From positions 12,651 through 76,650 of the forward strand of contig JBIOWF010000229.1 in NCBI GenBank assembly GCA_044868295.1: a stretch of DNA of 64,000 bases. The letters run 5' to 3'. A program made the position numbers and the translations under genes. The notes beneath the pieces are model-generated. The model saw only the letters and a list, made by a program, of their open reading frames with translations, was not told the DNA's origin and did no database searches. Shown piece by piece: positions 1,397 to 63,480 of this stretch. Within the stretch, counting starts at the first letter, position 1. Each line of letters begins with the position of its first letter. The stretch comes from Microtetraspora sp. (GTDB taxonomy: Bacteria; Actinomycetota; Actinomycetes; Streptosporangiales; Streptosporangiaceae).

Positions 1397-2045
1397 CGGG
1401 GTGCCTCCCAGCCGTTGGCCTTGGCGACCTTCAGACCCTCCAGCGAGGGGCCGGCGGCCGAGGGGCCGTCACCGGCCAGGCCGTCCGGGAGCCCGGCGAG
1501 GACCCGCGACGCTTCCTTGAACGTGCACAGCTTCTTCGGCCCGCGGGTCGGCGAGATCTCCTTGCCGTCGCGCAGGTCGTCGACGAGCTGTTTGGCCGAG
1601 GTGGGGGTCTGGTTGTCGAAGAACTCCCAGTTGACATCATCACCGGAGCGAAGTCGCAGGCGGCGTTGCACTCCAGCCGCTCCAGCGAGATCTTCCCGTC
1701 GGCGGTCGCCTCCTCGTGGCCGACGCCGACGTGCTCGGAGAGCTCATCCCAGATCTGGTCGCCGCCCATGATCGCGCACAGGCTGTTGATGCAGACGCCG
1801 ACGTGGTAGTCGCCGGCCGGCCTGCGCTTGTACATCGTGTAGAAGGTCGAGACGCCGACGACCTCCGCCTTGCTCAGGCCGAGCATCTCCGCGCAGAACT
1901 CGTGCCCGTCGTCGGAGACGTAGCCGTCCTCCGACTGCACCAGGTGCAGCAGCGGAAGCAGCGCCGAGCGCGCCTTCGGGTAACGGCCGATGATCTCCTT
2001 GGCGTCCGTTTCGAGACGCTCGCGGACCTCAGGTGAGTACGTCAC
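1393..2045 (-). pseudogene. nuoE: NADH-quinone oxidoreductase subunit E with an apparent 1-nt deletion frameshift
   Basis: The N-terminal part (MTYSPEVRERL...LECNAACDFAPVMM) is in the frame of ORF 1431-2045. The C-terminal part (VNWEFFDNQTPTSAKQLVDDLRDGK...) continues in the frame of ORF 1393-1671. The coding strand reads GTGATGATGTCAACTGGGAG near 1636; one extra G (ATGGTCAAC) restores VMMVNWEFF. Confidence 0.85.
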
Positions 2046-2125
2046 TGCGCCCTCCTCGCCTTCGGCTCGTCGGCGCGTGCCGTGAACGTGCTGTGCTTAT
2101 CGGCTCGCTCGCTTCGCTCACTCAC
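2042..2125 (-). repeat. MIRU-like intercistronic element with a 27-aa mini-ORF ([27 protein letters not shown]) linking nuoD to nuoE
   Basis: The GTG at 2125-2123 overlaps the nuoD TGA (GTGA). The TGA at 2044-2042 overlaps the nuoE GTG (GTGA). About three quarters nucleotide identity by eye to the hemA|hemC copies over the first ~46 nt. The 3-prime end carries GGCGAGGAGG as a Shine-Dalgarno sequence for nuoE. Confidence 0.8.
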
Positions 2126-3438
2126 CTGTCCACACCCCCCATGACCGGGTCGATCGAGGCGACCGCCGCGATGACGTCGGCGATCATGCCGCCCTCGCAC
2201 GTCGCGGGCACCGCCTGCAGGTTCGTGAAGGACGGGTCGCGGAAGTGTACGCGGTAGGGCCGCGTGCCGCCGTCGCTGACCACGTGCGCGCCGAGCTCGC
2301 CGCGCGGCGACTCCACCGCGGAGTACGCCTGGCCGGCCGGCACCCGGAAGCCCTCGGTCACCAGCTTGAAGTGGTGGATCAGCGCTTCCATCGAGCTGCT
2401 CATGATGTGCGCGATGTGGTCGGGCGAGTTGCCGAGGCCGTCGGGGCCGAGCGCCAGCTGCGAGGGCCAGCCGATCTTCTTGTCCTCGATCATCACCGGC
2501 CCGCCCTTGAGCGGCCCGGACAGCCGGTCGAGGGCCTGCTCGACGATCTTGAGCGACTCCTCCATCTCGGCCATGCGGACGAGGTAGCGGCCGTACACGT
2601 CACAGGTGTTCTCGGTCGGGACGTCGAACTCGTACGTCTCGTAGCCCGAGTACGGCTGGGACTTGCGCAGGTCCCACGGCAGGCCCGCGGCCCGCAGCAT
2701 GGGCCCGGTGATCCCGAGCGCCATGCAACCGGTCAGGTCCAGGTAGGCGACGTCCTTGGTCCTGCGGGTGTAGACCGGGTTGGCGTCGAGGAGCTTGCGC
2801 ATATCCTTGATCCGCGCCGGCATCACCTTGAGGAACTCGCCGATCTTGTCCACCGCGCCCGCGGGGAGGTCGACGCTCACACCGCCCGGCCGCACATAGG
2901 CCATGTTCATCCGGAGGCCGGTGATGTACTCGAACAGGTCGAGCACCATCTCCCGCTCGCGGAAGCCGAACAGCATCGGCGTGGTCGCACCCAGCTCGAT
3001 GCCGAACGTCGCGATGGCGACGAGGTGCGAGGAGATCCGGTTGAGCTCCATCATCATGACCCGGATGGCCTGCGCCCGGTCCGGGACCCTGTCGGTGATG
3101 CCGAGCAGCTTCTCCACGGCCATGCAGTACGCCGTCTCGTTGAAGATCGGCGACAGGTAGTCCATGCGGGTGACGAACGTGACCCCCTGGGTCCACGTCC
3201 GGAACTCCATGTTCTTCTCGATGCCGGTGTGCAGGTAACCGATCACCGTGCGGGCCTCGGTCACCGTCTCGCCGTCGAGCGTCAGCACCAGCCGCAGCAC
3301 GCCGTGCGTCGAAGGGTGCTGCGGGCCCATGTTGATGACCAGGCGCTCCTCGGACGAGTCCGAGACGGTCTCGACCAGCTCGTCCCAGTCCTGCCCGGCG
3401 ACGTCGTAGACCCGGCCTTCGGTCTCCGTGGCGGTCAT
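2122..3438 (-). CDS. nuoD: NADH-quinone oxidoreductase subunit D
   Basis: 438 aa ORF with a typical NuoD sequence ([15 protein letters not shown]...DPVMGGVDR). Confidence 0.95.
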
Positions 3439-3503
3439 GCGTTCACCTCGCCGCTGTGCCTGTGGATTCGCTCGCTGCTGTGCCTGTGGATTCGCTCGCT
3501 CAC
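3435..3503 (-). repeat. MIRU-like intercistronic element with a 22-aa mini-ORF ([22 protein letters not shown]) linking nuoC to nuoD; contains a perfect 24-bp tandem duplication
   Basis: The GTG at 3503-3501 overlaps the nuoC TGA. The TGA at 3437-3435 overlaps the nuoD ATG. Plus-strand units 3453-3476 and 3477-3500 are identical (gctgtgcctgtggattcgctcgct) and encode SERIHRHS twice in frame. Confidence 0.8.
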
Positions 3504-4165
3504 GAGTACGACCTCCTCTGGTCCGGCGCGGGGATCTCGCCGCCGCGATACTCGACGGGGATTCCGCCCAGCGGATAGTCCTTGCGCTGGGGGTGCCCCT
3601 CCCAGTCGTCGGGCATCTGGATGCGGGTCAGTGCGGGGTGACCGTCGAAGACGATCCCGAAGAAGTCGTAGGTCTCCCGCTCGTGCCAGTCATGGGTCGG
3701 GTAGACCGAAACCGTCGAGGGGATGTGCCGGTCCGAGTCGGGGCAGCCGACCTCGACCCTGACCCGCCGGTTGTGCGTGATCGAGCAGAGGTGGTAGACG
3801 GCGCGCAGCTCGCTGCCCGTCTCCTCCGGATAGTGCACGCCGGAGAGGCCGAGCGAGAGCTCGAACCGCAGCGCGGCGTCGTCACGCAGGTGCCGCAGCA
3901 CCTCTACGAGGTGCTCGCGCGCGACGTGGAAGGTGACCTCACCGCGATCGACCACCACGCGCTCGACAGCGTCGCCCGCGACCGCCTCCAGCGCGTCCGC
4001 CACCTCGTCGAAATAGGACCCGTACGGCCTGGCGCTGGAGAGCGTGGGCGCACGCCGCACGACCAGCTGGCCGTAACCGGACGTGTCACCACTGCCGGTG
4101 ACCCCGAACATGCCCGTCCGAGCGATCGGCTCCTCCGGCACCCCGGGGAGATTGTCGGTGCTCAC
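3500..4165 (-). CDS. nuoC: NADH-quinone oxidoreductase subunit C
   Basis: 221 aa ORF, NuoC-like (HYPEE...[21 protein letters not shown]). GTG start overlaps the nuoB stop. Confidence 0.93.
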
Positions 4166-4710
4166 CGCGCCCCCTGGTCGATCAGCGGCAGCGTGCGCAG
4201 CGCCTGGAGCTCAAGCTCGTCGATCTGCTTGGCACGATGCGCGCCGAACTTCATATTCTGGATCTTGTCGTGCAGCTTCACGATCGCGTCGATCAGCATC
4301 TCCGGGCGTGGCGGGCAGCCCGGCAGGTAGATGTCCACGGGCACGACGTGGTCCACCCCCTGCACGATGGCGTAGTTGTTGAACATCCCGCCACTGGACG
4401 CGCAGACGCCCATCGCGATGACCCACTTCGGCTCGGCCATCTGGTCATAGATCTGGCGGAGCACCGGCGCCATCTTCTGCGACAGCCGGCCGGCCACGAT
4501 CATCAGGTCGGCCTGCCGCGGTGACGCCGACGCCCGTTCCATGCCGAAGCGGGCCAGGTCGTGCTTGGGCCCGCCGGTCGCCATCAGCTCGATGGCGCAG
4601 CAGGCCAGGCCGAACGTCGCCGGCCATACGGAGTTCTTCCGTGCCCAGCCTGCCACCTGTTCGACAGTGGTCAGGACGAACCCGCTGGGGAGTTTCTCTT
4701 CAAGACCCAT
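4162..4710 (-). CDS. nuoB: NADH-quinone oxidoreductase subunit B
   Basis: Has [16 protein letters not shown] and LPGCPPRPE motifs. ATG at 4710 is preferred over the TTG at 4722, which overlaps nuoA. Confidence 0.93.
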
Positions 4711-4712
4711 GG

Positions 4713-5072
4713 CTAATCCCAATCAAGGCCGCGACGGCGCCACACGTAGGCGTACGCCACGAGGACGGTGACGATGAACAGCACCATCTCGACCAGCCCG
4801 AACACGCCGAGCTTGTCGAAGGCCACCGCCCACGGATAGAGAAAGATGATTTCGATGTCAAACACGATGAACAGCATCGCGGTGATCATGTACTTCAGCG
4901 GGAAGCGCCCACCGCCGACCGGCTGCGGCGTCGGCTCGATGCCGCACTCGTAGGCGTCCAGCTTGGCGCGGTTCCAGCGCTTCGGCCCGGTGAAGGGGGC
5001 GATGCCGGCGGAGAACACGGCGAACCCCGCCGCTAGGACCGCGAGCACCAGGATGGGTACATACAGCTCCAT
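4713..5072 (-). CDS. nuoA: NADH-quinone oxidoreductase subunit A
   Basis: 119 aa membrane protein ([23 protein letters not shown]). First gene of the nuo block. Confidence 0.9.
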
Positions 5073-24157: not shown

Positions 24158-25747
24158 TCATTTGGTGCGGCGCCGCGCGCCCCGGCGAGTCTGGGACGGC
24201 CGGCGAGGAACCTCACCGGCTGAGACGGCCGCGTGCCGCTGCTTGGCACCATACTGCGCGAGGGCCGCCGCCAGGGCGGAAGCTGACGGCTTGTCAGCCA
24301 TCACGTCGACCCGGAGGCCGAACTCCTCGGCCGTCTTGGCGGTCTGCGGGCCGATGACCGCGATGACCGTGACGTTGTGCGGCTTGCCGGCGATGCCGAC
24401 GAGATTGCGCACGGTCGAGGACGACGTGAAGAGCACGGCGTCGAAACCGCCGCCCTTGATCGCCTCACGGATCGGCGCGGGCGGCGGCGCCGCGCGCACC
24501 GTCCGGTACGCCGTCACGTCGTCGCACTCCCAGCCCAGCTCGGTCAGCCCGGCGACCAACGCCTCGGTGGCGATGTCCGCGCGGGGCAGCAGGACGCGGT
24601 TGATCGGGTCCAGCATCGAGTCGTACGGAGGCCACTCGGCCAGCAGGCCTTCCGACGACTGGTCGCCGGTCGGCGTCAGGTCGGGCTTCACTCCGAACTC
24701 GACGAGCGCCTTCGAGGTGGCGTCGCCGACGGCCGCCACCTTCAGCCCGGCGAACGCCCGCGCGTCCAGGCCGTACTCCTCGAACTTCTCGCGGACGGCC
24801 TTGACGGCGTTGGCGCTGGTGAAGGCGACCCACTCGTAGCGCCCGGTGACCAGGCCCTTGATGGCCCGGTCCATCTGCTGCGGGGTGCGCGGCGGCTCCA
24901 CGGAGATCGTCGGCACCTCCTCGGGCACCGCGCCGTAGGACCGCAGCTGCTCCGACAGCCCGGCCGCCTGTTCCTTCGTACGCGGCACGAGGACCCGCCA
25001 GCCGAACAGCGACTTGGTCTCGAACCACGACAGCCGGTCGCGCATGCCGACGGCCTCACCGACGACGATGATCGCCGGCTCGGTCATGCCCGCGTGCTTG
25101 AGGTCGGGGCCGATCCGGCCGAGCGAGGACACCACGGTGTACTGCTCGGTCGTGGTGCCGTCGCTCGTCACCGCGACCGGGGTCGAGTCGGGCTTGCCGC
25201 CCGCGATCAGCGCCTTGGCGATCGGAACCGCGTCCGCGACGCCGTTGTAGATGACCAGGGTGCCCTCGCACGTGGCGTGCCGTGCCCAATCGTTCACCTG
25301 CGCGGCGTCCACGATCCGGAACTCCGGGACGGCCACCGCCGGCGGGATCCCCGCATAGGTCAGTACGGCTGTCGCGGGCGGGACGCCTGGCACGATCTCG
25401 AAGTCGACGTCGGCCTTGGCGCAGGCCGCGACCTCGTCGGTGACCGAGGAGAAGAACGACGGATCGCCGGGGCACACCCGCACGACGATCCGGCCGGCCT
25501 TCGCCTCCTGAACCGTCTTCAGCGACACCGACCCCTCGACGGCGTCGGCCGCGATGTCCACGACCTCCACGCCCTCACGGCAGTGGCGGAGCAGCGGCGC
25601 GTGCACGTCGTGGTCGATGAGCACGACGTCGGCCTTGGCCAGCAGTTCGGCGCCACGAAGGGTGAGCAGGTTCTCATCGCCGGGGCCCGCGCCGACGAAG
25701 GCGACGAACCCGGGCCGGGGCTCTGGACTGTGATTCGCGGGGCTCAA
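24158..25747 (-). CDS. Bifunctional uroporphyrinogen-III C-methyltransferase / uroporphyrinogen-III synthase
   Basis: N-terminal SAM methylase (FVGAGPGDENLLTLRG) fused to a HemD-like C-terminal half. This is the usual actinobacterial fusion. Overlaps the hemC stop. Confidence 0.9.
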   Translation of the reverse strand: MSPANHSPEPRPGFVAFVGAGPGDENLLTLRGAELLAKADVVLIDHDVHAPLLRHCREGVEVVDIAADAVEGSVSLKTVQEAKAGRIVVRVCPGDPSFFSSVTDEVAACAKADVDFEIVPGVPPATAVLTYAGIPPAVAVPEFRIVDAAQVNDWARHATCEGTLVIYNGVADAVPIAKALIAGGKPDSTPVAVTSDGTTTEQYTVVSSLGRIGPDLKHAGMTEPAIIVVGEAVGMRDRLSWFETKSLFGWRVLVPRTKEQAAGLSEQLRSYGAVPEEVPTISVEPPRTPQQMDRAIKGLVTGRYEWVAFTSANAVKAVREKFEEYGLDARAFAGLKVAAVGDATSKALVEFGVKPDLTPTGDQSSEGLLAEWPPYDSMLDPINRVLLPRADIATEALVAGLTELGWECDDVTAYRTVRAAPPPAPIREAIKGGGFDAVLFTSSSTVRNLVGIAGKPHNVTVIAVIGPQTAKTAEEFGLRVDVMADKPSASALAAALAQYGAKQRHAAVSAGEVPRRPSQTRRGARRRTK

Positions 25748-26676
25748 AGTGCCTGTTCCCCCATCAACGTGCCGGCCCCTTCGGCGATCATGGCGGCCGC
25801 GAGCTCGCGACCCAGGCCCATGGCCGCCGGAGAAGGTCCGGAGGTGGACTTGCGCACTGATCGGACACCGTCGATGGCCACGACGGCGGCGGTCAGGTTG
25901 AGAATGTGCCCGTCAACGGAGGCGAACGCACCTACCGGCGCCGCGCAGCCCGCCTCAAGGGCCGAGAGCACCGCCCGCTCCGCGGTGACCGCGGCGCGGG
26001 TGTGCGAATCGTCCATGACGCCCAGCAGCTCGATCAGATCGGCGCGGGTGGCCAGGCACTCGACGGCGAGCGCGCCCTGACCCGGCGCGGGCAGCATCTC
26101 GTCGACCTCGAAGATCTGGGAGATCTCGCTGTCCCGGCCGATCCTGGCGAGCCCGGCCGCGGCCAGCACAACCCCGTCCAGCTCGCCCGAGGTGACCTTG
26201 CCGATGCGGGTGTCCGCGTTGCCCCTGATCGGGACGTAGTGCAGGTCCGGCCGCAGCGCGCGCAGTTGCGCGATGCGGCGCGGAGAGCCGGTGCCGACCT
26301 TCGCGCCCGGCGGCAGATCCGAGAGCGGGGCCGGGCCGACCAACGCGTCACGCGGGTCGTCACGCGGCGATATGGCGGCGATCACGATCCGCTCGTCCAC
26401 CGCCGTCGGCAGGTCCTTGAGCGAGTGGACCGCGAAGTCGATCTCACCGTCGATGAGCTTGGCACGCAGCTCGCTGACGAACACCCCGGTGCCGCCGAGC
26501 TGCGTGAGCTGGGCCTTCGTGACGTCGCCGAACGTCGTGACGCCCACGAGCTCGACGCTCCGGCCGGTCAGCGCCGTCAACCGGTCGGCCACGAGCTGGG
26601 ACTGCGTGGTCGCCATCAGGCTCTTGCGGGTGCCGAGCCGCAACGGGCCGTCGTGGCCGTGCATTCGCTCGCTCAT
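25744..26676 (-). CDS. hemC: Hydroxymethylbilane synthase (porphobilinogen deaminase)
   Basis: The ATG at 26676 is preceded by GGCGAGGGGG. The protein reads MSERMHGHDGPLRLGTRKSLMATTQSQ... The TTG at 26727 from the ORF track is rejected. Confidence 0.9.
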   Translation of the reverse strand: MSERMHGHDGPLRLGTRKSLMATTQSQLVADRLTALTGRSVELVGVTTFGDVTKAQLTQLGGTGVFVSELRAKLIDGEIDFAVHSLKDLPTAVDERIVIAAISPRDDPRDALVGPAPLSDLPPGAKVGTGSPRRIAQLRALRPDLHYVPIRGNADTRIGKVTSGELDGVVLAAAGLARIGRDSEISQIFEVDEMLPAPGQGALAVECLATRADLIELLGVMDDSHTRAAVTAERAVLSALEAGCAAPVGAFASVDGHILNLTAAVVAIDGVRSVRKSTSGPSPAAMGLGRELAAAMIAEGAGTLMGEQAL

Positions 26677-26783
26677 GACACCCCCTCGCCTAGCGGCTCG
26701 GGGTCTGGTCGTGCCGAAGGCGCGCAATTCGACACTTCGCGAAACGCACTGTGCTTATCGATTCGCTCGCTACGCTCGCTCAT
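26673..26783 (-). repeat. MIRU-like intercistronic element, proximal copy, 36-aa mini-ORF (MSERSERIDKHSAFREVSNCAPSARPDPEPLGEGVS) ending on the hemC ATG
   Basis: The ATG at 26783-26781 overlaps the TGA of the distal copy. The TGA at 26675-26673 overlaps the hemC ATG. Nearly identical to the distal copy apart from an in-frame 27-nt length difference (a ~30-nt block replaces one TGC codon). Confidence 0.85.
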
Positions 26784-26863
26784 GACACCCCCTCGCCTAG
26801 CGGCTCGGGGTCGCATTCGCGAAACGCACTGCGCTTATTGATTCGCTCGCTACGCTCGCTCAT
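26780..26863 (-). repeat. MIRU-like intercistronic element, distal copy, 27-aa mini-ORF (MSERSERINKRSAFRECDPEPLGEGVS) starting on the hemA stop
   Basis: The ATG at 26863-26861 overlaps the hemA TGA (ATGA). The TGA at 26782-26780 overlaps the ATG of the next copy. Confidence 0.85.
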
Positions 26864-28170
26864 GAGTCGGCCTCCATCCGGGAAACGGCGTCGGGCGCCT
26901 TGGGATCGAGGTTGAACAGCTCGCGCAACGCCTCCGCATAATGATCGCCCGCCGGGGACGCGGCCAGCTGCTTGACACGCACGGTCGGCTCGTGAAGCAG
27001 TTTGTCCACCACCCGCCGCACGGTCTGGGCGACCTCGTCGCGCACCCGACCGTCCAGCTCCGGCACGCGCGAGACCAGCCGGCCGATCTCGGCCTCGACG
27101 ACGTCGGCGGCCTTGCTGCGCAGCGCGATCACCGTCGGTGTCACCCTCGCCGACCGCTCCGCTTCGAGATAGGCGGTGACCTCCTCGGTGACGATCTCCT
27201 TCACCGCGAGGATCGCCTCGCCCCGGCCGCCGTCGTCGGCGCCGAGCCCGGCCTGCTGCATCGACTCCAGGTCGACGAGTGTCACGCCCGGCAGGGCGCG
27301 CACGCCCGGATCCACGTCGTGCGGCAGAGCGAGGTCAAGCAGGAAGAGCTGCGTCGAGGGGTCGCGGCCGGCGATCGCGGCGGAGACCATGTCGACGGTG
27401 ACGGCGCGGGAGCCGGCACCGACGCACGAGACCACCAGGTCGGCCCCGGCCAGCTCGGCGGGGATGTCCGCCAGCTCGACGGCCCGGCCGCCGATGGCCT
27501 CCGCCAGCCGTACGCCACGCTCGAAGGTGCGGTTCGCGATGACGATGTCGGTCACGCCCGCGCGGGCGAGAGACGCCGCGGACAGCGCGCTCATCGATCC
27601 CGCGCCGACGACCAGGGCCCGCTTGCCGGCGATCGGGCCGAGCACCCGCTCGGCGAGCGACAGGCCGACCCCGATCAGGGAGGCTCCCGCCCGGTCGATG
27701 CCGGTGTCGGTGTGCGCCCGCTTACCGACCCGCAGAGCCTGCTGGGTGAGCTCGTTGAGCGAGGTCCCGGCGGTGCCCTCGTTCTGCGCCAACCTGAGCG
27801 CCGTGCGGATCTGGCCGAGGATCTGGCCCTCACCGATCACCATGGAGTCGAGGCCGCAGGCCACCGAGAACAGGTGCTGGACGGCGCGGTCCTCGTAATG
27901 CACGTACAGGTGCTTGGTGAGCTGCTCCTGGGGGATGCCCGAATGCACGCTGAGCAGGTCCGTCACCGCGGCCAGCCCGCCGTGGAAGCGGTCCACGTCC
28001 GCGTAGACCTCGACGCGGTTGCACGTGGACACGACGAGGACCTCGGACACGTGCTGGTCCCGCTGCACGTCGTGCAGCAGTTTCACGAGCGCGTCACCGC
28101 TCACCGTCACGCGTTCGAGTAATGCGACCGGGGCGGTGTGGTGGCTGACGCCGACGGCGAGGATGCTCAT
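26860..28170 (-). CDS. hemA: Glutamyl-tRNA reductase
   Basis: 436 aa with a typical HemA sequence (MSILAVGVSHHTAPV, STCNRVEVY). Confidence 0.95.
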   Translation of the reverse strand: MSILAVGVSHHTAPVALLERVTVSGDALVKLLHDVQRDQHVSEVLVVSTCNRVEVYADVDRFHGGLAAVTDLLSVHSGIPQEQLTKHLYVHYEDRAVQHLFSVACGLDSMVIGEGQILGQIRTALRLAQNEGTAGTSLNELTQQALRVGKRAHTDTGIDRAGASLIGVGLSLAERVLGPIAGKRALVVGAGSMSALSAASLARAGVTDIVIANRTFERGVRLAEAIGGRAVELADIPAELAGADLVVSCVGAGSRAVTVDMVSAAIAGRDPSTQLFLLDLALPHDVDPGVRALPGVTLVDLESMQQAGLGADDGGRGEAILAVKEIVTEEVTAYLEAERSARVTPTVIALRSKAADVVEAEIGRLVSRVPELDGRVRDEVAQTVRRVVDKLLHEPTVRVKQLAASPAGDHYAEALRELFNLDPKAPDAVSRMEADS

Positions 28171-29353: not shown

Positions 29354-31006
29354 TTATCTGAAGGTTGTGGGGAGAGGCACGACCTTGGCGGCGTTCACGG
29401 TCAGCTCGATGACATTGGTGGCCAGGACCAGCGCCTGCCGCTCGGTCGCGAAACGCTCCATGTGGGGCTGGCGCTGGTGCTCGGTGAAGCCCACCTCGTC
29501 CCGGTAGAGCTCGTACACGATGCGCTGCAGCGGCGCCGACTTGACGCCGTGGCACACGAAGATCAGCGTGTCGGGTTCGCTGCGCTGCACGGCCTCCACG
29601 GTCTCCTCGGCCAGCCTGTCGAAGGCATCGCCTGAGCCGTCCATCAGCGTGAACACGGTGAGCAGACCATAGATGCTGGGTGACGGCTTGACCGTGCCGC
29701 CCTGCATCGGGCTGCTCTGCATGGGACCGGACTGCAGGGGACCGGGCGACGGAGGACCGGGCGGCATCGGGCCCATCGGACCTGACTGCATCGGACCTGC
29801 GGGACCAGGAGGCATCGGGCCCATCGGGCCGGGCGGCACGGGGCCCATGGGCCCCGGGGGCACCGAGCCGGGCGGCATGGAACCGGGCGGCATGGAACCT
29901 GGGGGCATCGGGCCGGGGGGCGCGGGCGCCGGGCCTGGTCGGGCCGCAGGGCCGAGCCCACCGCCCGCGCCTGGGCCCATCTCCGCCCCAGGGAACATCG
30001 CTCCTGTGGCGGGCATGCCGTACTCCTGCTTGGACTGAGCCGCCGGCATGCCGTACTCCGGCTTGCCGGGCGCGCCGTACGGGTCGGAGCTCATGATCTG
30101 ACCGGTCGCGGGGCCGCCGAAACCATCGGCCGGCTGCATCCGGGCGGCGTAGTCGACCTCACCCTGCTCGCCCGCGCGGTACTCCGCCACGAGGTCGCCC
30201 AGGCCCGAGCGGCGGGCAGGAGCCTGCGCGGGCGGCTCGACACGATCCTCGGCCGCGCGGTGGTCGCGCCCCTGCCACTCATCCGCACGCGCGTCCACCT
30301 CCTCGTCCTCGTCCTCGTACGGCGCGAGCGGGCGGGCGACCGCGTACCAGATCGCTCCGACGGCGGCCATCATGAGCACGATCACGACGACTCCGGGGAG
30401 CGTGAACTCCAGCGATACCGCGAGCGCGATTCCGGCCGGGGCGAGCGCCACGCTGGCGTTCATGTTGTCGGCGTCGTAGTCGTCCCCGTCCCGCCAGCTC
30501 AGCAGGGCGATGGCGAGAGAGATCACCAGCATCGCCACGACGAGCCCGTGGACGCCCCTCAGCAGCCATTCGGGCCAGATGTCCCAATGCGTCGCACCGT
30601 ACGGGAGCTCCTTGGCGAACGCCCCTGACAGGGGATCGAACAGCAGGATCACCGTGCCGACGACCGTCAGGGCGATGCCCAGCAGCCAGCCCGCGAACCG
30701 CGCCGCCGCCTTCTCGGCCAGCAGTTGGAGCACGCCCACGGCCAGCCAGAGAGGCGCCAGCAGCGAGCCGGTGATCTGGAACGACCGGAAGGTCGTGGAC
30801 CCGAATCCGATCAAATGCCCGGTGGCCGCCACACCCAGCGACAGGCACAGCGCGACGGTGGCGATGGTCCACGCGGTCAGCCAGCCCGAGGGCTCGTCGC
30901 GCAGGCGCCCGATCAGGACGCCTACGGCGATGGCGGCCAGGAGCGCGCCGGCGAACGCGATGACAGCGACAAAGACTTCCATGGTGGCACCCATGCTGCC
31001 GGACAT
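29354..31006 (-). CDS. Membrane protein with a Pro/Gly/Met-rich linker and a C-terminal ABM (antibiotic biosynthesis monooxygenase-like) domain
   Basis: 550 aa with about 6 N-terminal TM helices. A low-complexity PPGSMPPGSMPPGSVPPGPMGP run follows. The C-terminus (YGLLTVFTLMDG...YELYRDEVGFTEHQRQPHMERF) is ABM-like. Confidence 0.6.
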   Translation of the reverse strand: MSGSMGATMEVFVAVIAFAGALLAAIAVGVLIGRLRDEPSGWLTAWTIATVALCLSLGVAATGHLIGFGSTTFRSFQITGSLLAPLWLAVGVLQLLAEKAAARFAGWLLGIALTVVGTVILLFDPLSGAFAKELPYGATHWDIWPEWLLRGVHGLVVAMLVISLAIALLSWRDGDDYDADNMNASVALAPAGIALAVSLEFTLPGVVVIVLMMAAVGAIWYAVARPLAPYEDEDEEVDARADEWQGRDHRAAEDRVEPPAQAPARRSGLGDLVAEYRAGEQGEVDYAARMQPADGFGGPATGQIMSSDPYGAPGKPEYGMPAAQSKQEYGMPATGAMFPGAEMGPGAGGGLGPAARPGPAPAPPGPMPPGSMPPGSMPPGSVPPGPMGPVPPGPMGPMPPGPAGPMQSGPMGPMPPGPPSPGPLQSGPMQSSPMQGGTVKPSPSIYGLLTVFTLMDGSGDAFDRLAEETVEAVQRSEPDTLIFVCHGVKSAPLQRIVYELYRDEVGFTEHQRQPHMERFATERQALVLATNVIELTVNAAKVVPLPTTFR

Positions 31007-39998: not shown

Positions 39999-41023
39999 GC
40001 GTCCTCCCGCGATCCGGTACGGCTGCCGCCTGCGGCCTCGCCGGGTCCAGTACGGCCGGCACCACCCGCCTCACCCGGTCCAGTACGGCCGGCACCACCC
40101 GCCTCGCCGAGCCTGGCATGGCGGCCGCCGCCCGCCTCTCCCGATGCGGTATGGCCGCCGCCGGCCCCTCCATATCCGGCATGCCGGCCGCCACCGGGCT
40201 CTCCCGGCCCTGTACGGCCGGCCGCGGCGGGGACCGTACCCGAACCGGAGTCGAGCTCGATGAGCCCGTCGCGGACGTGGATCTGGCGGCGGGCGCGTTC
40301 CGCCACCTCGGGCTCGTGTGTGACGAGGACGACCGCGACCCCGCCCTCCTCGTTGAGGCGCTGAAGGAGGTTCATCACCTCCGTGCCGTTTCGCGTGTCG
40401 AGGTTTCCGGTCGGCTCGTCCGCCAGGACGACCTTCGGATCACCGACCAACGCGCGGGCGATGGCCACCCGCTGCTGCTCGCCGCCGGACATCTGCGAGG
40501 GCCGGTGGTCCAGCCGGTGGCCGAGCCCGACGGCCTCCAGCGCCTCCTTCGCCGCGCGGCGGCGCTCGCTCCGCGCCACCCCGCGATAGACCAGCGGCAG
40601 CGCGACGTTGTCGAGCGCCGACGTGCGGGCCAGCAGGTGGAAGGACTGGAAGACGAAGCCGATGGTCTCGTTGCGCAGCTCGGCGAGCTGTGTGTCGTCG
40701 AGCGTCGAGACGTCGACGCCGCCCACCTTGAGGGTGCCGGTGGTCGGCCGGTCGAGGCACCCGAGCAGATGCATCAGCGTCGACTTGCCCGACCCGGACG
40801 GCCCGAGGATCGCCGCGAACTCCCCCTGGTCGATGCGCAGGTTCACCCCGCGCAACGCGTCGACGGACACGCCTTCGAGCTGGTAGGACCGGGTGAGATC
40901 GACCGCGTCGAAAGCGCTCGCCGAAGTCTCGGCGGCTCCCACGATCATGAGAGGGGTTCCCGCCGGCCGCGCGGGATCATCGCGCCTGTCTGCATGCTCG
41001 CGTACGGAGTCAATGCAGGTCAC
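39995..41023 (-). CDS. ABC transporter ATP-binding protein (MacB-type ATPase) with a Gly/Ala/Pro-rich C-terminal tail
   Basis: Has Walker [10 protein letters not shown], signature LSGGEQQR and Walker B VVLADEP. The tail of about 85 aa includes a 33-bp tandem duplication (40041-40106, [11 protein letters not shown] x2). The start may be the ATG at 40948. Confidence 0.9.
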
Positions 41024-44780: not shown

Positions 44781-45478
44781 TCAGGGATTTGCCCGCAGCC
44801 TACCGGCCTCGTCGCCGGTGGACGTCAGGACCGGCTCAGCAGCGATCGAACGAAGAACGCGAGATCGGCGTCGCGTCCCACGACGACGTCGGCAGATCCC
44901 GACTCTCCTCCCGGCCTGTCCCCCGACGCACCGGGCCAGCAGCACCAGCGCCCTCACCATCTGCTCGGCGTGCGGCAGGGTCGCCTCCATTGAGGGGGCG
45001 CCCTCGCGACGCATGACGAACGAGACATGGCGGCCGTCACCGACGAGATGAACCCCGGACCGTGTGAAAACCGAGTATTCCGGAAGCACTTCCCCAGAAC
45101 CCACGCCATTGCGGGCTCCTGCGTCGCGACGTGGTACGAGGCGTCGACGTCGGGGCGACCGGTCGCCGTCGCGGGCAGCGGCTGGGTCAGCGGGACAGCC
45201 TCATACCCGCTGACGGCACTGTCCCGCTTGGCTGCCCGGGCGGCCCTCAGTCCGTACACGCCGAACAGCCCGCCCATGACCAGGGCGGGGACGATGTGCT
45301 GGGTGATGGTCATCGCGGATCAGTTCCTCGGGGGCTGCGGAGGCGTCCAGCCACCCGGCCCTGACGGATGGCCGGCCCCCGCCGGATACCCGGACGACCC
45401 CGAGGGATAGCCCGACGGCCCCGAGGGATGGCCGGCCGCCCCTGACGGATACGCGGACGGCCCTGACGGATAGCCGGT
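44781..45478 (-). pseudogene. Apparently disrupted gene for a PGY-rich / single-TM membrane protein
   Basis: Six 7-aa [YH]PSGxxG repeats (45323-45478) are in the same frame as the TM-containing ORF MTITQHIVPALVMGGLFGVYGL. An in-frame TGA at 45320-45322 separates them, and no in-frame start exists upstream. Downstream, two overlapping frames (44954-45313 and 44781-45104) each look partly coding. Confidence 0.35.
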
Positions 45479-53710: not shown

Positions 53711-54358
53711 ATGTCCAAGACATCACGAAGCATTCGGGGGCGGAGCGTCGCGCTGGCGGCACTCACCGTCGGGGTCAGCTGGCTGGCGACCGGTCAGGCG
53801 ATGGCGGCGGACGGGGCGCTCGACCACACCGGCCCGTTCTCTGCCGTTCTCGACGCGGCTCGGCAGGCCGACCACCTCGGCCTGCCAGGTCTCGCCTCGG
53901 CGTCAGGGGTGGTAGGCCTCGCCGACGCCGCGGGCGCCGCCGCCGGGCAGGGGCTGCCGTCCCTGCCGGGCCTGCCCGAGACCTCCACACTCGCCAAGCC
54001 GGCGCCGGCCGTTCCCGGCCTTCCGGACGCGACCAAGCTGGCCAGCGTGCCGGACGTGCCGCGCGTCCCGGCGGTGCCCGCGGTCCCCGGGCGGCCGGAC
54101 GTTCCCGGCGTCACCTCGGTGGTGCCGGAGGTCGGTGAGGTGTCAGGCAAGGTCAGCGATCTCACGTCGAACCTTCCCAAGGTGCCGGACCTGCCCCAGG
54201 TCCCATCGCTGGACGGGAAGCCGTCGCTGCCGAAGACGCCGGACCAGGTCCCGGCGCTTCCGGATGTTCCCAGCACGGACAGGCTTCCGGATGTTCCCAG
54301 CACGGACAAGGTGACGGACCTCGCCAAGGACGTGCTCCAGAGCACGCTCCCGAAGTAA
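53711..54358 (+). CDS. Secreted Pro-rich repetitive hypothetical protein
   Basis: Has a signal peptide (ATGQAMAADG) and many short (L/V)PD(V/L)P-type repeats. Confidence 0.5.
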   Translation: MSKTSRSIRGRSVALAALTVGVSWLATGQAMAADGALDHTGPFSAVLDAARQADHLGLPGLASASGVVGLADAAGAAAGQGLPSLPGLPETSTLAKPAPAVPGLPDATKLASVPDVPRVPAVPAVPGRPDVPGVTSVVPEVGEVSGKVSDLTSNLPKVPDLPQVPSLDGKPSLPKTPDQVPALPDVPSTDRLPDVPSTDKVTDLAKDVLQSTLPK

Positions 54359-62487: not shown

Positions 62488-63399
62488 ATGGAGAAAACGG
62501 CCAAGCCGCAACGCTCTATCCGGCGGACACGGAAGGGGTCGTCAGCGGACCTGCTTCACCGGCTCGAACGGTCCACGACCCTTGACCAGCCCATCCGGGT
62601 GATCGCGAAGGCCGTGCGTCGCAGGCTCGGCGTCGGCCGGATCCGCGACCTGCTGCACGGCGTGCCTCTCGGCCATCCCGTCCATCCCCCGCTGGCCACC
62701 TTCAGCCTGGGCTGCTGGCTGGCGACAGCCGTACTGGACCTGACCAGATCGGATCCGCGAGCCGCCCGGGCGCTGCTCGCGACCGGAGTGGGCGCCGCGA
62801 TCCCGACGGCCGCCGCCGGGATCGCGGACTGGTCGACCCTCCATCGGGAGCAGCAGCGCGTGGGGATCGTCCACGCGCTGTCCAACCTGACCGCGGCCGG
62901 GCTCTACACGGCGTCCCTTCTGCTGCGCCTCGACGGGAAGGAGCGGACCGGCCGAGTGCTGGCGTTCGCCGGGCTGAGCGCGGCGAGTCTCGGTGGTTAC
63001 CTGGGAGGCCACCTCGCCTTCCGGCTGGCAGCCGGGGCGAACCATGCCGAGTCGGTCAGCCACCTGGTGCCGCTCGGCTGGCACGACCTGTGCGCGCTGC
63101 GTGACCTGCCCCACGGGCGCCCGGTCGCCCGGCGGCTCGGCTACATCGACCTCTTCGTGCTGCGGTTCGGGGACGGGGTCAGCGTACTCGCCGACCATTG
63201 CTCCCACCTGGCGGGGCCGTTGCACCAGGGCCGCGTCGTCGTCGAGGACGGCGACCCCTGCGTGGTGTGCCCGTGGCACGGGAGCGTCTTCCGCATCTCG
63301 GACGGCGCGGTGGTGCACGGGCCCGCCACCGCACGCCAACCGGCGTTCCAGACCCGGCTGCGGCGCGACGGCATCGTCCAGGTCCGCCCCGCCGACTGA
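62488..63399 (+). CDS. DUF2231 membrane domain fused to a Rieske [2Fe-2S] domain
   Basis: Has the GHPVHPPL motif and 4 TM helices. The C-terminal CSHLAGPL...CPWHGSVF region is a Rieske CxH/CxxH pair. Confidence 0.8.
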   Translation: MEKTAKPQRSIRRTRKGSSADLLHRLERSTTLDQPIRVIAKAVRRRLGVGRIRDLLHGVPLGHPVHPPLATFSLGCWLATAVLDLTRSDPRAARALLATGVGAAIPTAAAGIADWSTLHREQQRVGIVHALSNLTAAGLYTASLLLRLDGKERTGRVLAFAGLSAASLGGYLGGHLAFRLAAGANHAESVSHLVPLGWHDLCALRDLPHGRPVARRLGYIDLFVLRFGDGVSVLADHCSHLAGPLHQGRVVVEDGDPCVVCPWHGSVFRISDGAVVHGPATARQPAFQTRLRRDGIVQVRPAD

Positions 63400-63480
63400 T
63401 CGTCCGGCTTCGGCCTGCCGACTGATCGTCCAGGTCCGGCCTGCCGACTGATCGTCCAGGTCCGGCCGGGCCGCCTAATG
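63373..63480 (+). repeat. Tandem repeat of about 26 bp (4 units) duplicating the 3-prime end and stop codon of the Rieske gene
   Basis: Units at 63373-63398 (atcgtccaggtccgccccgccgactg), 63399-63424, 63425-63450 and a degenerate 63451-63480. The first unit encodes the last residues IVQVRPAD plus TG of the stop. Confidence 0.85.

Follow-up and report, generated by a model that had tools for sequence, protein, structure and literature searches.

Mycobacterial interspersed repetitive units (MIRUs) are in wide use for tuberculosis typing. They are repeats of 40–100 bp, flanked by 4-nt direct repeats, with about 40–50 intercistronic copies per genome; their open reading frames (ORFs) overlap the neighboring genes, and empty sites are found in relatives (PMC3184786, PMC12548453; the original account is Supply et al. 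1997, as summarized in these two articles). Both articles describe MIRUs from mycobacteria only, and neither names a mobilizing enzyme. Here we describe units of similar design in a stretch of 64,000 nt (referred to as the window) from the actinomycete Microtetraspora sp. (family Streptosporangiaceae; GCA_044868295.1, contig JBIOWF010000229.1, positions 12,651–76,650). Two consecutive junctions of its nuo operon for respiratory complex I, nuoC–nuoD and nuoD–nuoE, contain short inserts that encode mini-ORFs, and related units occur in tandem between hemA and hemC. We name the units SERSER elements after the peptide MSERSER... that they encode. Most probably, the inserts belong to a family of short interspersed repeats of Actinomycetota that is non-autonomous, rides on start codons, and would act as a coupling relay.

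Family membership and anatomy of the units

At the nuoD–nuoE junction, nuoD ends in ...GACAGGTGA, where the GTG at position 2125 starts a 27-codon ORF, and the TGA of this ORF (2044–2042) overlaps the GTG of nuoE (2045). Similarly, nuoC ends in ...TACTCGTGA, and the GTG (3503–3501) of a second mini-ORF shares bases with its TGA. The latter mini-ORF reads GTGAGCGAGCGAATCCACAGGCACAGC AGCGAGCGAATCCACAGGCACAGC GGCGAGGTGAACGCATGA, encodes 22 residues, and ends in a TGA at 3437–3435 overlapping the nuoD ATG (3438). The sequence-only reading, a preceding inspection of the letters and the ORF list, had reported overlaps at both ends of the two mini-ORFs and the lack of inserts at the remaining nuo junctions. 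Both points can be read directly from the sequence: nuoA and nuoB are separated by a 2-nt gap, and the nuoB–nuoC, nuoE–nuoF, and nuoF–nuoG junctions are 4-nt RTGA overlaps.

A hidden Markov model (HMM) built from the two hem units and the nuoD–nuoE insert retrieved exactly these three source units in the window at E ≤ 3e-18, and the nuoC–nuoD insert at E = 0.04. A second model, built from copies in other genera only and including no window copies, gave E values of 6e-14 and 1e-10 for the first and second hem units, 3.9e-10 for the nuoD–nuoE insert, and 0.022 for the nuoC–nuoD insert. The full-length matches span about 78 positions, including the non-repetitive parts. Judging from these scores, in particular E = 3e-18 against the hemA–hemC copies, the nuoD–nuoE insert is an unambiguous family member. 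The nuoC–nuoD insert is assigned to the family because the orthologous junction of Microbispora corallina holds an intact 77-nt unit (34.7 bits). The earlier proposal that one family occupies both nuo junctions and the hem locus is therefore upheld, at nuoC–nuoD by way of M. corallina.

The family is dispersed beyond the window. One genome per species was scanned with the 17-mer GYGAGCGWAGCGAGCGA, RTGA being deliberately excluded from the pattern, and at least 129 matches in at least 120 loci were obtained, with many chance hits in unrelated taxa. In 37 of the 129 matches listed, [AGT]TGA precedes the 17-mer, and most of these 37 are in Actinomycetota. Carriers among the matches listed are Microbispora, Nonomuraea, Planomonospora, Planobispora, several species of Nocardia, Kitasatospora, Streptomyces, Micromonospora, Planosporangium, Plantactinospora, Kribbella, Nocardioidaceae, and metagenome-assembled genomes (MAGs) of Acidimicrobiia. 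The genes downstream of the units are unrelated to each other (a MerR regulator, a hydrolase, Pup ligase, an ABC ATPase, MetRS, an FGGY kinase, ArgR, PNPOx, OppC, and dihydroorotase). Occupied junctions in other genera include argF–argR, pyrB–pyrC, and oppB–oppC, the upstream names being read from translated upstream frames, and some units precede an operon's first gene, the DNA further upstream being non-coding (L057 and L086). The occurrence of units both at operon-first genes and at junctions indicates that the target is a start codon followed by AGY, and that operon junctions are occupied where that start already overlapped a stop. Here as at nuoC–nuoD, nuoD–nuoE, and hemA–hemC, the elements have the orientation of the genes beside them. 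Whole units in tandem are found at several loci (two units each at hem, L006, and L078, at least three at L026, and at least two at L120), and a unit is fused in frame to the host protein at L017, L052, L063, and L068. Three junctions are occupied in the 64-kb window. About 30 actinomycete loci of about 8 kb each yielded no further copy besides the seed, suggesting tens, not hundreds, of copies per genome.

Units were compared in an alignment of 27 extracted copies. A unit is counted from one RTG to the next, has a modal length of 77 or 80 nt, and ranges from 38 to 107 nt (classes of 38, 59, 65, 68, 71, 77, 80, 104, and 107 nt). The length is 3n−1 in 25 of 28 full-length copies (p ~ 1e-9 versus a chance of 1/3), and RTGAGY directly follows 23 of 26 arrays, against a background of 14% of the RTGA sites in the window (p ~ 8e-17); both p-values are optimistic, since some of the counted copies are orthologues or tandem duplicates. 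RTGAGY, that is, the start codon and an AGY serine codon, flanks the units as direct repeats, and each of the four window units has RTGA at either end, as do nearly all the full-length copies outside the window. ATG-AGY contains a TGA one base out of frame, so that the own frame of a 3n−1 unit ends in a TGA overlapping the host RTG. The RTG of the unit in turn overlaps the upstream stop wherever the host start had done so before, as at nuoC–nuoD, nuoD–nuoE, and hemA–hemC.

The 5′ box of the unit is GAGCGWAGCGAGCGA, which encodes MSERSER, and the center is variable. The 3′ half forms an imperfect palindrome with GAGCGNAGCGAGG at the apex (GAGCCG-N(1-2)-AGGCGAGG in Streptosporangiaceae). The 3′ arm of this hairpin contains a Shine-Dalgarno-like GAGG 7–9 nt before the start codon, and at the foot an internal RCTCAY pairs with RTGAG of the junction. 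The hairpin was specified by hand on a MAFFT alignment of 26 distinct 3′ ends and compared with shuffled and slid controls. Paired cells account for 67%, versus 59% in column shuffles (none of 500 reaches the observed value) and no more than 44% with slid partners, and 38 cells are changed on both sides, twice the 19 expected (again reached by none of 500 shuffles). Covariation with the pairing partner is also seen for the first base of the start codon (U-A in 12 and C-G in 5). Both boxes contain GCGNAGC or GCGNNAGC. PMC13037366 gives GCGNAGC as the motif of "extraordinarily stable mini-hairpin DNA", and its presence in the boxes may serve as a lead.

A search in Rfam 15 gave no hit at the gathering threshold in the whole window and, over the elements, nothing relevant at E ≤ 1. 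A scan of viral contigs with a 20-mer yielded 35 loci, all with the 5′ box alone, and the full element was found in no phage; among plasmids, the hem array had a single blastn hit, which was weak and partial. A literature search, with most subscription journals beyond its reach, found no description of the family, which is weak evidence for novelty.

The 17-mer GYGAGCGAAGCGAGCGA is also found midway in other, unrelated types of repeats. These occur in the Pseudomonas group (L016, L023, L035, L075, L084, and L118), in Alphaproteobacteria (L022, L032, L044, L059, and L077), in a Gemmatimonadaceae MAG (L076), and in an unclassified bacterial MAG (L112). One type reads TTAGCCGGTCCCGA-...-CTTGAACC, with about seven weak 5′-box matches in 8 kb of L016, where the repeats are possibly integron attC-like sites. 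Another consists of GTCATTCCGGGGC-...-CCCGGAATCC palindromes. Several repeat families seem to have a core with GCGAAGC at their apex.

Filled and empty junctions in relatives

The nuoC–nuoD–nuoE junctions of related genomes, whose alignment the sequence-only reading had suggested, are polymorphic between filled and empty states. In the window, the nuoC–nuoD and nuoD–nuoE inserts are 65 and 80 nt, respectively. Both junctions are also filled in the metagenome contig L167 (NuoD identity, 97%; 38 and 80 nt). Microtetraspora glauca (96%) has an empty nuoC–nuoD junction (ATGA) and an 80-nt nuoD–nuoE insert, and two assemblies of this species are identical. The opposite combination is found in Planotetraspora kaengkrachanensis (95%; 59 nt at nuoC–nuoD) and in M. 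corallina (94%; the intact 77-nt unit), in both of which nuoD–nuoE is empty. Both junctions are empty in Microbispora sp. PTA-5024 (94%) and, judging from gene coordinates only, in the metagenome contig encoding P0003 (96%). All the nuoC–nuoD versions (77, 65, 59, and 38 nt) are 3n−1 in length. The empty orthologous sites are plain 4-nt RTGA overlaps, several of which read RTGAGY. Likewise, hemA and hemC simply overlap by ATGA in the closest relative (HemC identity, 88%) and in three Microtetraspora genomes, and hemC at the empty hem junctions starts with ATGAGT or ATGAGC, which is the target sequence. Since the orthologous sites in relatives are either filled or simple RTGA overlaps, the earlier suggestion of insertion into pre-existing coupled junctions is supported.

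The window, L167, and M. glauca have the nuoD–nuoE element in common. Its L167 orthologue is identical at 75 of 80 positions by manual count. The M. glauca orthologue is identical at 60 of 80 positions (75%), versus 83% at the third codon positions of nuoD, which fits an old orthologous insert under weak constraint.

The nuoC–nuoD insert contains the perfect 24-bp tandem that had been noticed before, and the two units were found to be identical by both Tandem Repeats Finder (TRF; period 24, 2.2 copies, score 101) and a pattern search (two exact matches versus 0 expected in shuffles). The unit aligns with positions 13–36 of the element (compare AGCGAGCGAATCAATAGGCACAGC in Microbispora catharanthi). 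The insert, a rearranged or decayed family member, retains RTGAGCGAGCGA (GTGAGCGAGCGA) at the 5′ end and GGCGAGGTGAACGC-ATGA (GGCGAGG-N7-ATGA) at the 3′ end. The same junction of L167 reads GTGAGTCGAATTCCCGAGCACAGC-GGCGAGGTGAACGG and has one copy of the 24-nt segment with the same 3′ end. The copy number of the segment thus differs between close relatives, in agreement with the expectation of a variable number tandem repeat (VNTR)-type change. The single copy in L167 indicates that the duplication arose in the lineage of the window, with the frame kept (+8 codons). The 48-nt array has no repeated 31-mer, so short-read assemblers should resolve the tandem and an assembly artifact is unlikely, by reasoning rather than from a tool result. 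Exact-protein look-ups with NuoD and NuoC of the window matched no record, and the 16 loci from a metagenome scan with the nuoD start and the preceding 3′ end of the nuoC–nuoD insert were all chance matches to a Shine-Dalgarno site plus start, with no nuo junction among them.

The two hem units are arranged in tandem with ATGA junctions like those of the nuo inserts, and a 13-mer from the insert starts has three further occurrences at 26664–26863. The additional 27 nt of the second, long unit (26709–26735) are also present in 104-nt units at a different locus of M. catharanthi. The start of the window hemC (26650–26676, minus strand), ATGAGCGAGCGAATGCAC (MSERMHGHD), mimics the 5′ end of the element, whereas that of the closest relative is MSDRGEQAGGHD. 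HemC of the window has 310 residues, seven more than the 303 in most relatives. The hemC start may derive from in-frame fusion of a third, partial unit, or its similarity may be native and have favored insertion. A 1.6-kb Logan contig (L161; SRR30692719) encoding 100% identical HemC, apparently an independent assembly from the same organism, has its first base within the last hem unit, 19 nt ahead of hemC, suggesting that the tandem array breaks short-read assemblies.

Table 1. Positions of the nuo and hem genes, SERSER units, and their parts in the window
Feature	Position	Strand	Remarks
nuoF	107–1396	minus	
nuoE	1393–2045	minus	split by a 1-nt deletion near 1634–1636
nuoD–nuoE mini-ORF, 27 codons	2042–2125	minus	GTGA overlap at each end
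nuoD–nuoE element	2046–2125	minus	80 nt, full-length family member
3′ imperfect palindrome GCGCC..GAGCCGAAGGCGAGG..GGGCGC	2047–2076	minus	C-GAA-G apex; Shine-Dalgarno-like GAGG in 3′ arm
conserved 5′ box GAGCGAAGCGAGCGA	2105–2119	minus	includes GCGAAGC
nuoD	2122–3438	minus	PF00346; 94–97% identical to Streptosporangiaceae NuoD (Microtetraspora, Planotetraspora, Microbispora)
nuoC–nuoD mini-ORF, 22 codons	3435–3503	minus	GTG overlaps nuoC TGA; TGA overlaps nuoD ATG
nuoC–nuoD insert	3439–3503	minus	65 nt (3n−1), decayed family member with internal duplication
3′ box remnant GGCGAGGTGAACGC	3439–3452	minus	Shine-Dalgarno-like GAGG 7 nt before nuoD ATG; same 3′ end in L167
2 × 24-bp perfect tandem of AGCGAGCGAATCCACAGGCACAGC	3453–3500 (units 3477–3500, 3453–3476)	minus	TRF, exact matches
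nuoC	3500–4165	minus	ORF; orthologue with Pfam PF00329
nuoB	4162–4710	minus	
nuoA	4713–5072	minus	
hemC	25744–26676	minus	starts ATGAGCGAGCGAATG..., resembling element 5′ end
hemA–hemC unit 2	26677–26783	minus	107-nt long form
hemA–hemC unit 1	26784–26863	minus	80 nt; ATG overlaps hemA TGA
hemA (glutamyl-tRNA reductase)	26860–28170	minus	ORF; Pfam families of orthologues

Some other features of the nuo operon and the window were observed. On the minus strand of nuoE (1627–1643), 1 nt is missing compared with M. glauca (ATGATGGTCAACTGG to ATGATGTCAACTGG), which gives two frames (...CDFAPVMM and VNWEFFDNQ...). The deletion is either a sequencing error or a sign of a frameshifted complex I subunit. 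The nuoE–nuoF junction of M. glauca (L001, ~5035–5062) has 18 additional in-frame nucleotides (AGGAGGATCGGTGAGCGACCGATGA) that are lacking in the window; this is a small junction insert, and its membership of the family is not clear. In Microbispora sp. PTA-5024, a 33-residue ORF is called between the geranylgeranyl reductase gene and nuoA (L004, 1325–1426); the 5′ end of this ORF lies in an ATGA overlap, and the ORF is not similar to the SERSER family. TRF also detected tandem repeats unrelated to the element at 63361–63467 (26 nt × 3.7, just beyond an ORF end, with a period that is not a multiple of 3), 54256–54318 (perfect 27 nt × 2), 45353–45477 (21 nt × 6), 40035–40192 (33 nt × 2–3), and 29717–29921 (24/15-nt periodic).

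A proposed coupling relay and its alternatives

The anatomy of the units suggests how an operon could tolerate them. Ribosomes that end the upstream gene, or that load at the original Shine-Dalgarno site, would translate the mini-cistron, and this translation would melt the 3′ hairpin holding the downstream Shine-Dalgarno site and start. The ribosome would then halt at the UGA within RTGA and re-initiate at once on the overlapping host start, probably aided by the GAGG of the unit itself 7–9 nt before that start. The same logic of ribosome hand-over has been put forward for MIRUs (PMC12548453). An insertion of this type would be nearly neutral for operon expression and could be tolerated in essential operons such as those for complex I and haem synthesis. 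Such a relay would account for the fact that decayed copies keep the 3n−1 length. The direct RTGAGY repeats could allow precise loss of units and changes in tandem copy number by slippage, and the units themselves may be moved in trans by an enzyme.

Several observations weigh against this picture of a mobile, hairpin-bearing family. The filled or empty state of nuoC–nuoD departs from the ranking by NuoD identity (e.g., M. corallina versus PTA-5024). In addition, nuoC ends in TAC-TCG-TGA in all four filled cases (L028, L003, L167, and the window) and in TAC-GCG/GCA-TGA in both empty ones (L001 and L004), for which a simple insertion model does not account; repeated insertion bringing extra bases, allele exchange, and repeated precise loss are possible explanations. 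The nuoC–nuoD insert alone is a weak nhmmer match (10.4–10.5 bits, E = 0.02–0.04), has lost the central hairpin, and is less structured than its own shuffles. As for the hairpin in general, RNAalifold on the raw MAFFT alignment of 3′ ends predicted no consensus structure, and single-sequence folds are no more stable than shuffles (z of −0.3 to −1.7). Cells with G-U equal those with A-C (25 versus 25), so that the hairpin is not assignable to RNA rather than DNA, and the wobble pairs give no sign of RNA-level structure. No near-identical copies were seen at different loci of one genome, meaning that recent transposition is not demonstrated, and no candidate transposase was identified in the loci, no whole carrier genome being read. 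Finally, the taxonomic range and the copy numbers are samples from the matches listed, and the optimism of the p-values given above should also be considered.

A host-selected, cis-regulatory RNA is a possible alternative, though an unlikely one. The hairpin would hide the Shine-Dalgarno site and start, the downstream gene would be expressed only upon translation of the upstream frame, subunit ratios would thereby be tuned, and the units would not be neutral passengers. The compensatory 3′ hairpin does take in GAGG and the start codon, the frame is kept even in decayed copies, and the nuoD–nuoE element has been retained long enough to be common to the window, L167, and M. glauca. However, close relatives lack the element at the same junctions, the nuoC–nuoD copy has lost the hairpin, the target genes have no functional relation, and the wobble pairs show no strand asymmetry.

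The elements might instead be true diverged members of the mycobacterial MIRUs, sharing a common ancestor and not the design alone, which we consider doubtful. The sequence common to the two is limited to the 11-mer GAGCGTAGCGA. It encodes E-R-S in frame in MIRU, and the matching GAGCGWAGCGAG of the SERSER 5′ box encodes E-R-S-E in the same frame, but the 11-mer corresponds to the generic mini-hairpin motif GCGNAGC (PMC13037366). The MIRUs at senX3–regX3 share the architecture of ATGA overlaps, tandem 77-nt units, a 6-nt direct repeat, and a 3′ Shine-Dalgarno-like run, and Nocardia, which belongs to the same order as Mycobacterium, is among the SERSER carriers. Nevertheless, the family HMM scores only about 2 bits on the senX3–regX3 MIRU region of Mycobacterium tuberculosis, a Nocardia-only HMM gives no hit in that region (shuffled controls reach up to 6.9 bits), and an HMM of MIRU has no significant match in the window or in any of the actinomycete loci. 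Because of this lack of detectable sequence similarity, the SERSER elements are filed as a separate family of the same kind.

Elements of the IS200/IS605 type have subterminal hairpins, and their short target sequence pairs with an internal guide. The SERSER units are reminiscent of this arrangement in that the internal RCTCAY pairs and covaries with RTGAG of the junction and in that GCGNAGC is found at the apex. The pairing at the junction together with the mini-hairpin caps would be compatible with a single-strand, hairpin-guided mechanism as a minority possibility. The units are, however, far smaller, and the pairing may be just that of an RNA hairpin. We know of no transposase gene for the SERSER family. 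A still bolder reading is that the units represent an undescribed family of mobile "coupling cassettes" spread across Actinomycetota, with IS200/IS605- or REP-RAYT-like hairpin-guided targeting via RCTCAY at the foot of a DNA hairpin that has a GCGNAGC mini-hairpin as its cap, of which family MIRUs would be a diverged branch. We think this improbable, although, if true, it would for the first time give access to the mechanism by which MIRU-type repeats are mobilized.

It is very improbable that the mini-ORFs are real small-protein genes for a family of MSERSER peptides. They do have open frames, start codons, a Shine-Dalgarno or coupling context, and seven conserved first residues. Apart from MSERSER and an ERSE derived from the 3′ box in frame, however, the peptides are unrelated, and conservation tracks the nucleotide boxes and the palindrome arms. 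The length classes differ by internal deletions, a CGA codon that constitutes 2% of the Arg codons in host genes is fixed, and a collection of 15 billion proteins does not contain the mini-ORFs. The unrelated peptides, the fixed rare codon, and this absence place the constraint on nucleotides and frame, not on the peptide. Ordinary lineage-specific spacers that resemble each other through GC-rich low complexity, with the 24-bp duplication as an assembly artifact, are hardly credible either: the 5′ box is indeed made of GAGCG-like repeats and the 17-mer alone also matches many unrelated genomes and phages, but E values of 1e-10 to 1e-14 over about 78 positions, the precise junctions, the similarity to the hem copies (3e-18), and the empty junctions in relatives all contradict the conserved spacer that the sequence-only reading had named as the opposing case, and the single copy in L167 is the state expected of a real duplication; the array also has no repeated 31-mer.

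The reading as a start-codon-riding repeat family with a putative coupling relay would have several consequences. The design would let a repeat colonize essential operons with little polar damage. Many independent filled and empty sites and the conserved hairpin provide material for studying target choice and mobilization. The units cause mis-annotation of start codons and N termini (NuoD annotated as 429–451 residues, HemC as 303 versus 310, and the in-frame fusions), may break short-read assemblies as at L161, and could serve as ready-made VNTR markers for rare actinomycetes.

Comparison with MIRUs and other known systems

The SERSER elements resemble MIRUs in many respects, a likeness that the sequence-only reading had missed: the start-codon or intercistronic position, co-orientation, an internal ORF overlapping the neighbors (−4 spacing), size classes of 40–100 bp, short direct repeats, empty sites, tandem arrays, and GC-rich internal inverted repeats. 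At senX3–regX3 of M. tuberculosis (CP012506.2; L125, 1856–2090), two MIRU units of 77 nt and a third of 78 nt are joined by ATGA/ATGACC, with the unit sequence ATGACCTGCGCC...GAGCGTAGCGATGAGG...GGCGCTG. The two families differ in the flanking repeat, ATGACC in MIRU versus RTGAGY in the SERSER family, in the SERSER boxes GAGCGWAGCGAGCGA (5′ end) and GAGCGNAGCGAGG (hairpin apex), and in the hosts, the SERSER carriers being not Mycobacterium but Streptosporangiaceae together with five or more further actinomycete lineages. These comparisons suggest that the SERSER elements have a MIRU-type architecture but constitute a separate, previously unnamed family widely distributed in actinomycetes. If a second family with another sequence shares the start-codon-riding design and is carried in many actinomycete orders, the strategy would be a general one.

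In CP012506.2, the third MIRU unit (78 nt) is in frame with regX3. Several database entries of RegX3 are extended at the N terminus (245–347 residues versus 227), and these extensions are probably MIRU frames merged into the gene.

REP/BIME, ERIC, and MITE-type repeats (PMC3184786) are, like the SERSER units, short, GC-rich, and hairpin-forming, with many interspersed copies co-transcribed with operons. They lie outside reading frames, typically after stops, with inverted repeats at the termini or with a GTAG head, whereas the SERSER units have direct terminal boxes, land on start codons, obey the 3n−1 rule, and appear to be read through by design. The positions of the palindromes also differ, that of SERSER overlapping the start codon and that of REP following the stop. 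A MITE is ruled out by the alignment of 27 units, in which the boxes at the two ends have a direct rather than an inverted arrangement (GAGCGWAGCGAG at the 5′ side and GAGCGNAGCGAGG at the 3′ side), and the inverted repeat is internal to the 3′ half.

Synthetic bicistronic couplers (PMC12548453) share with the SERSER units a short leader cistron with a Shine-Dalgarno site, whose stop overlaps the gene start (ATGA). In both, the ribosome would be delivered to the gene and the local structure melted. The SERSER units differ in being natural, repeated, and apparently mobile; they may be regarded as natural counterparts of these synthetic-biology devices.

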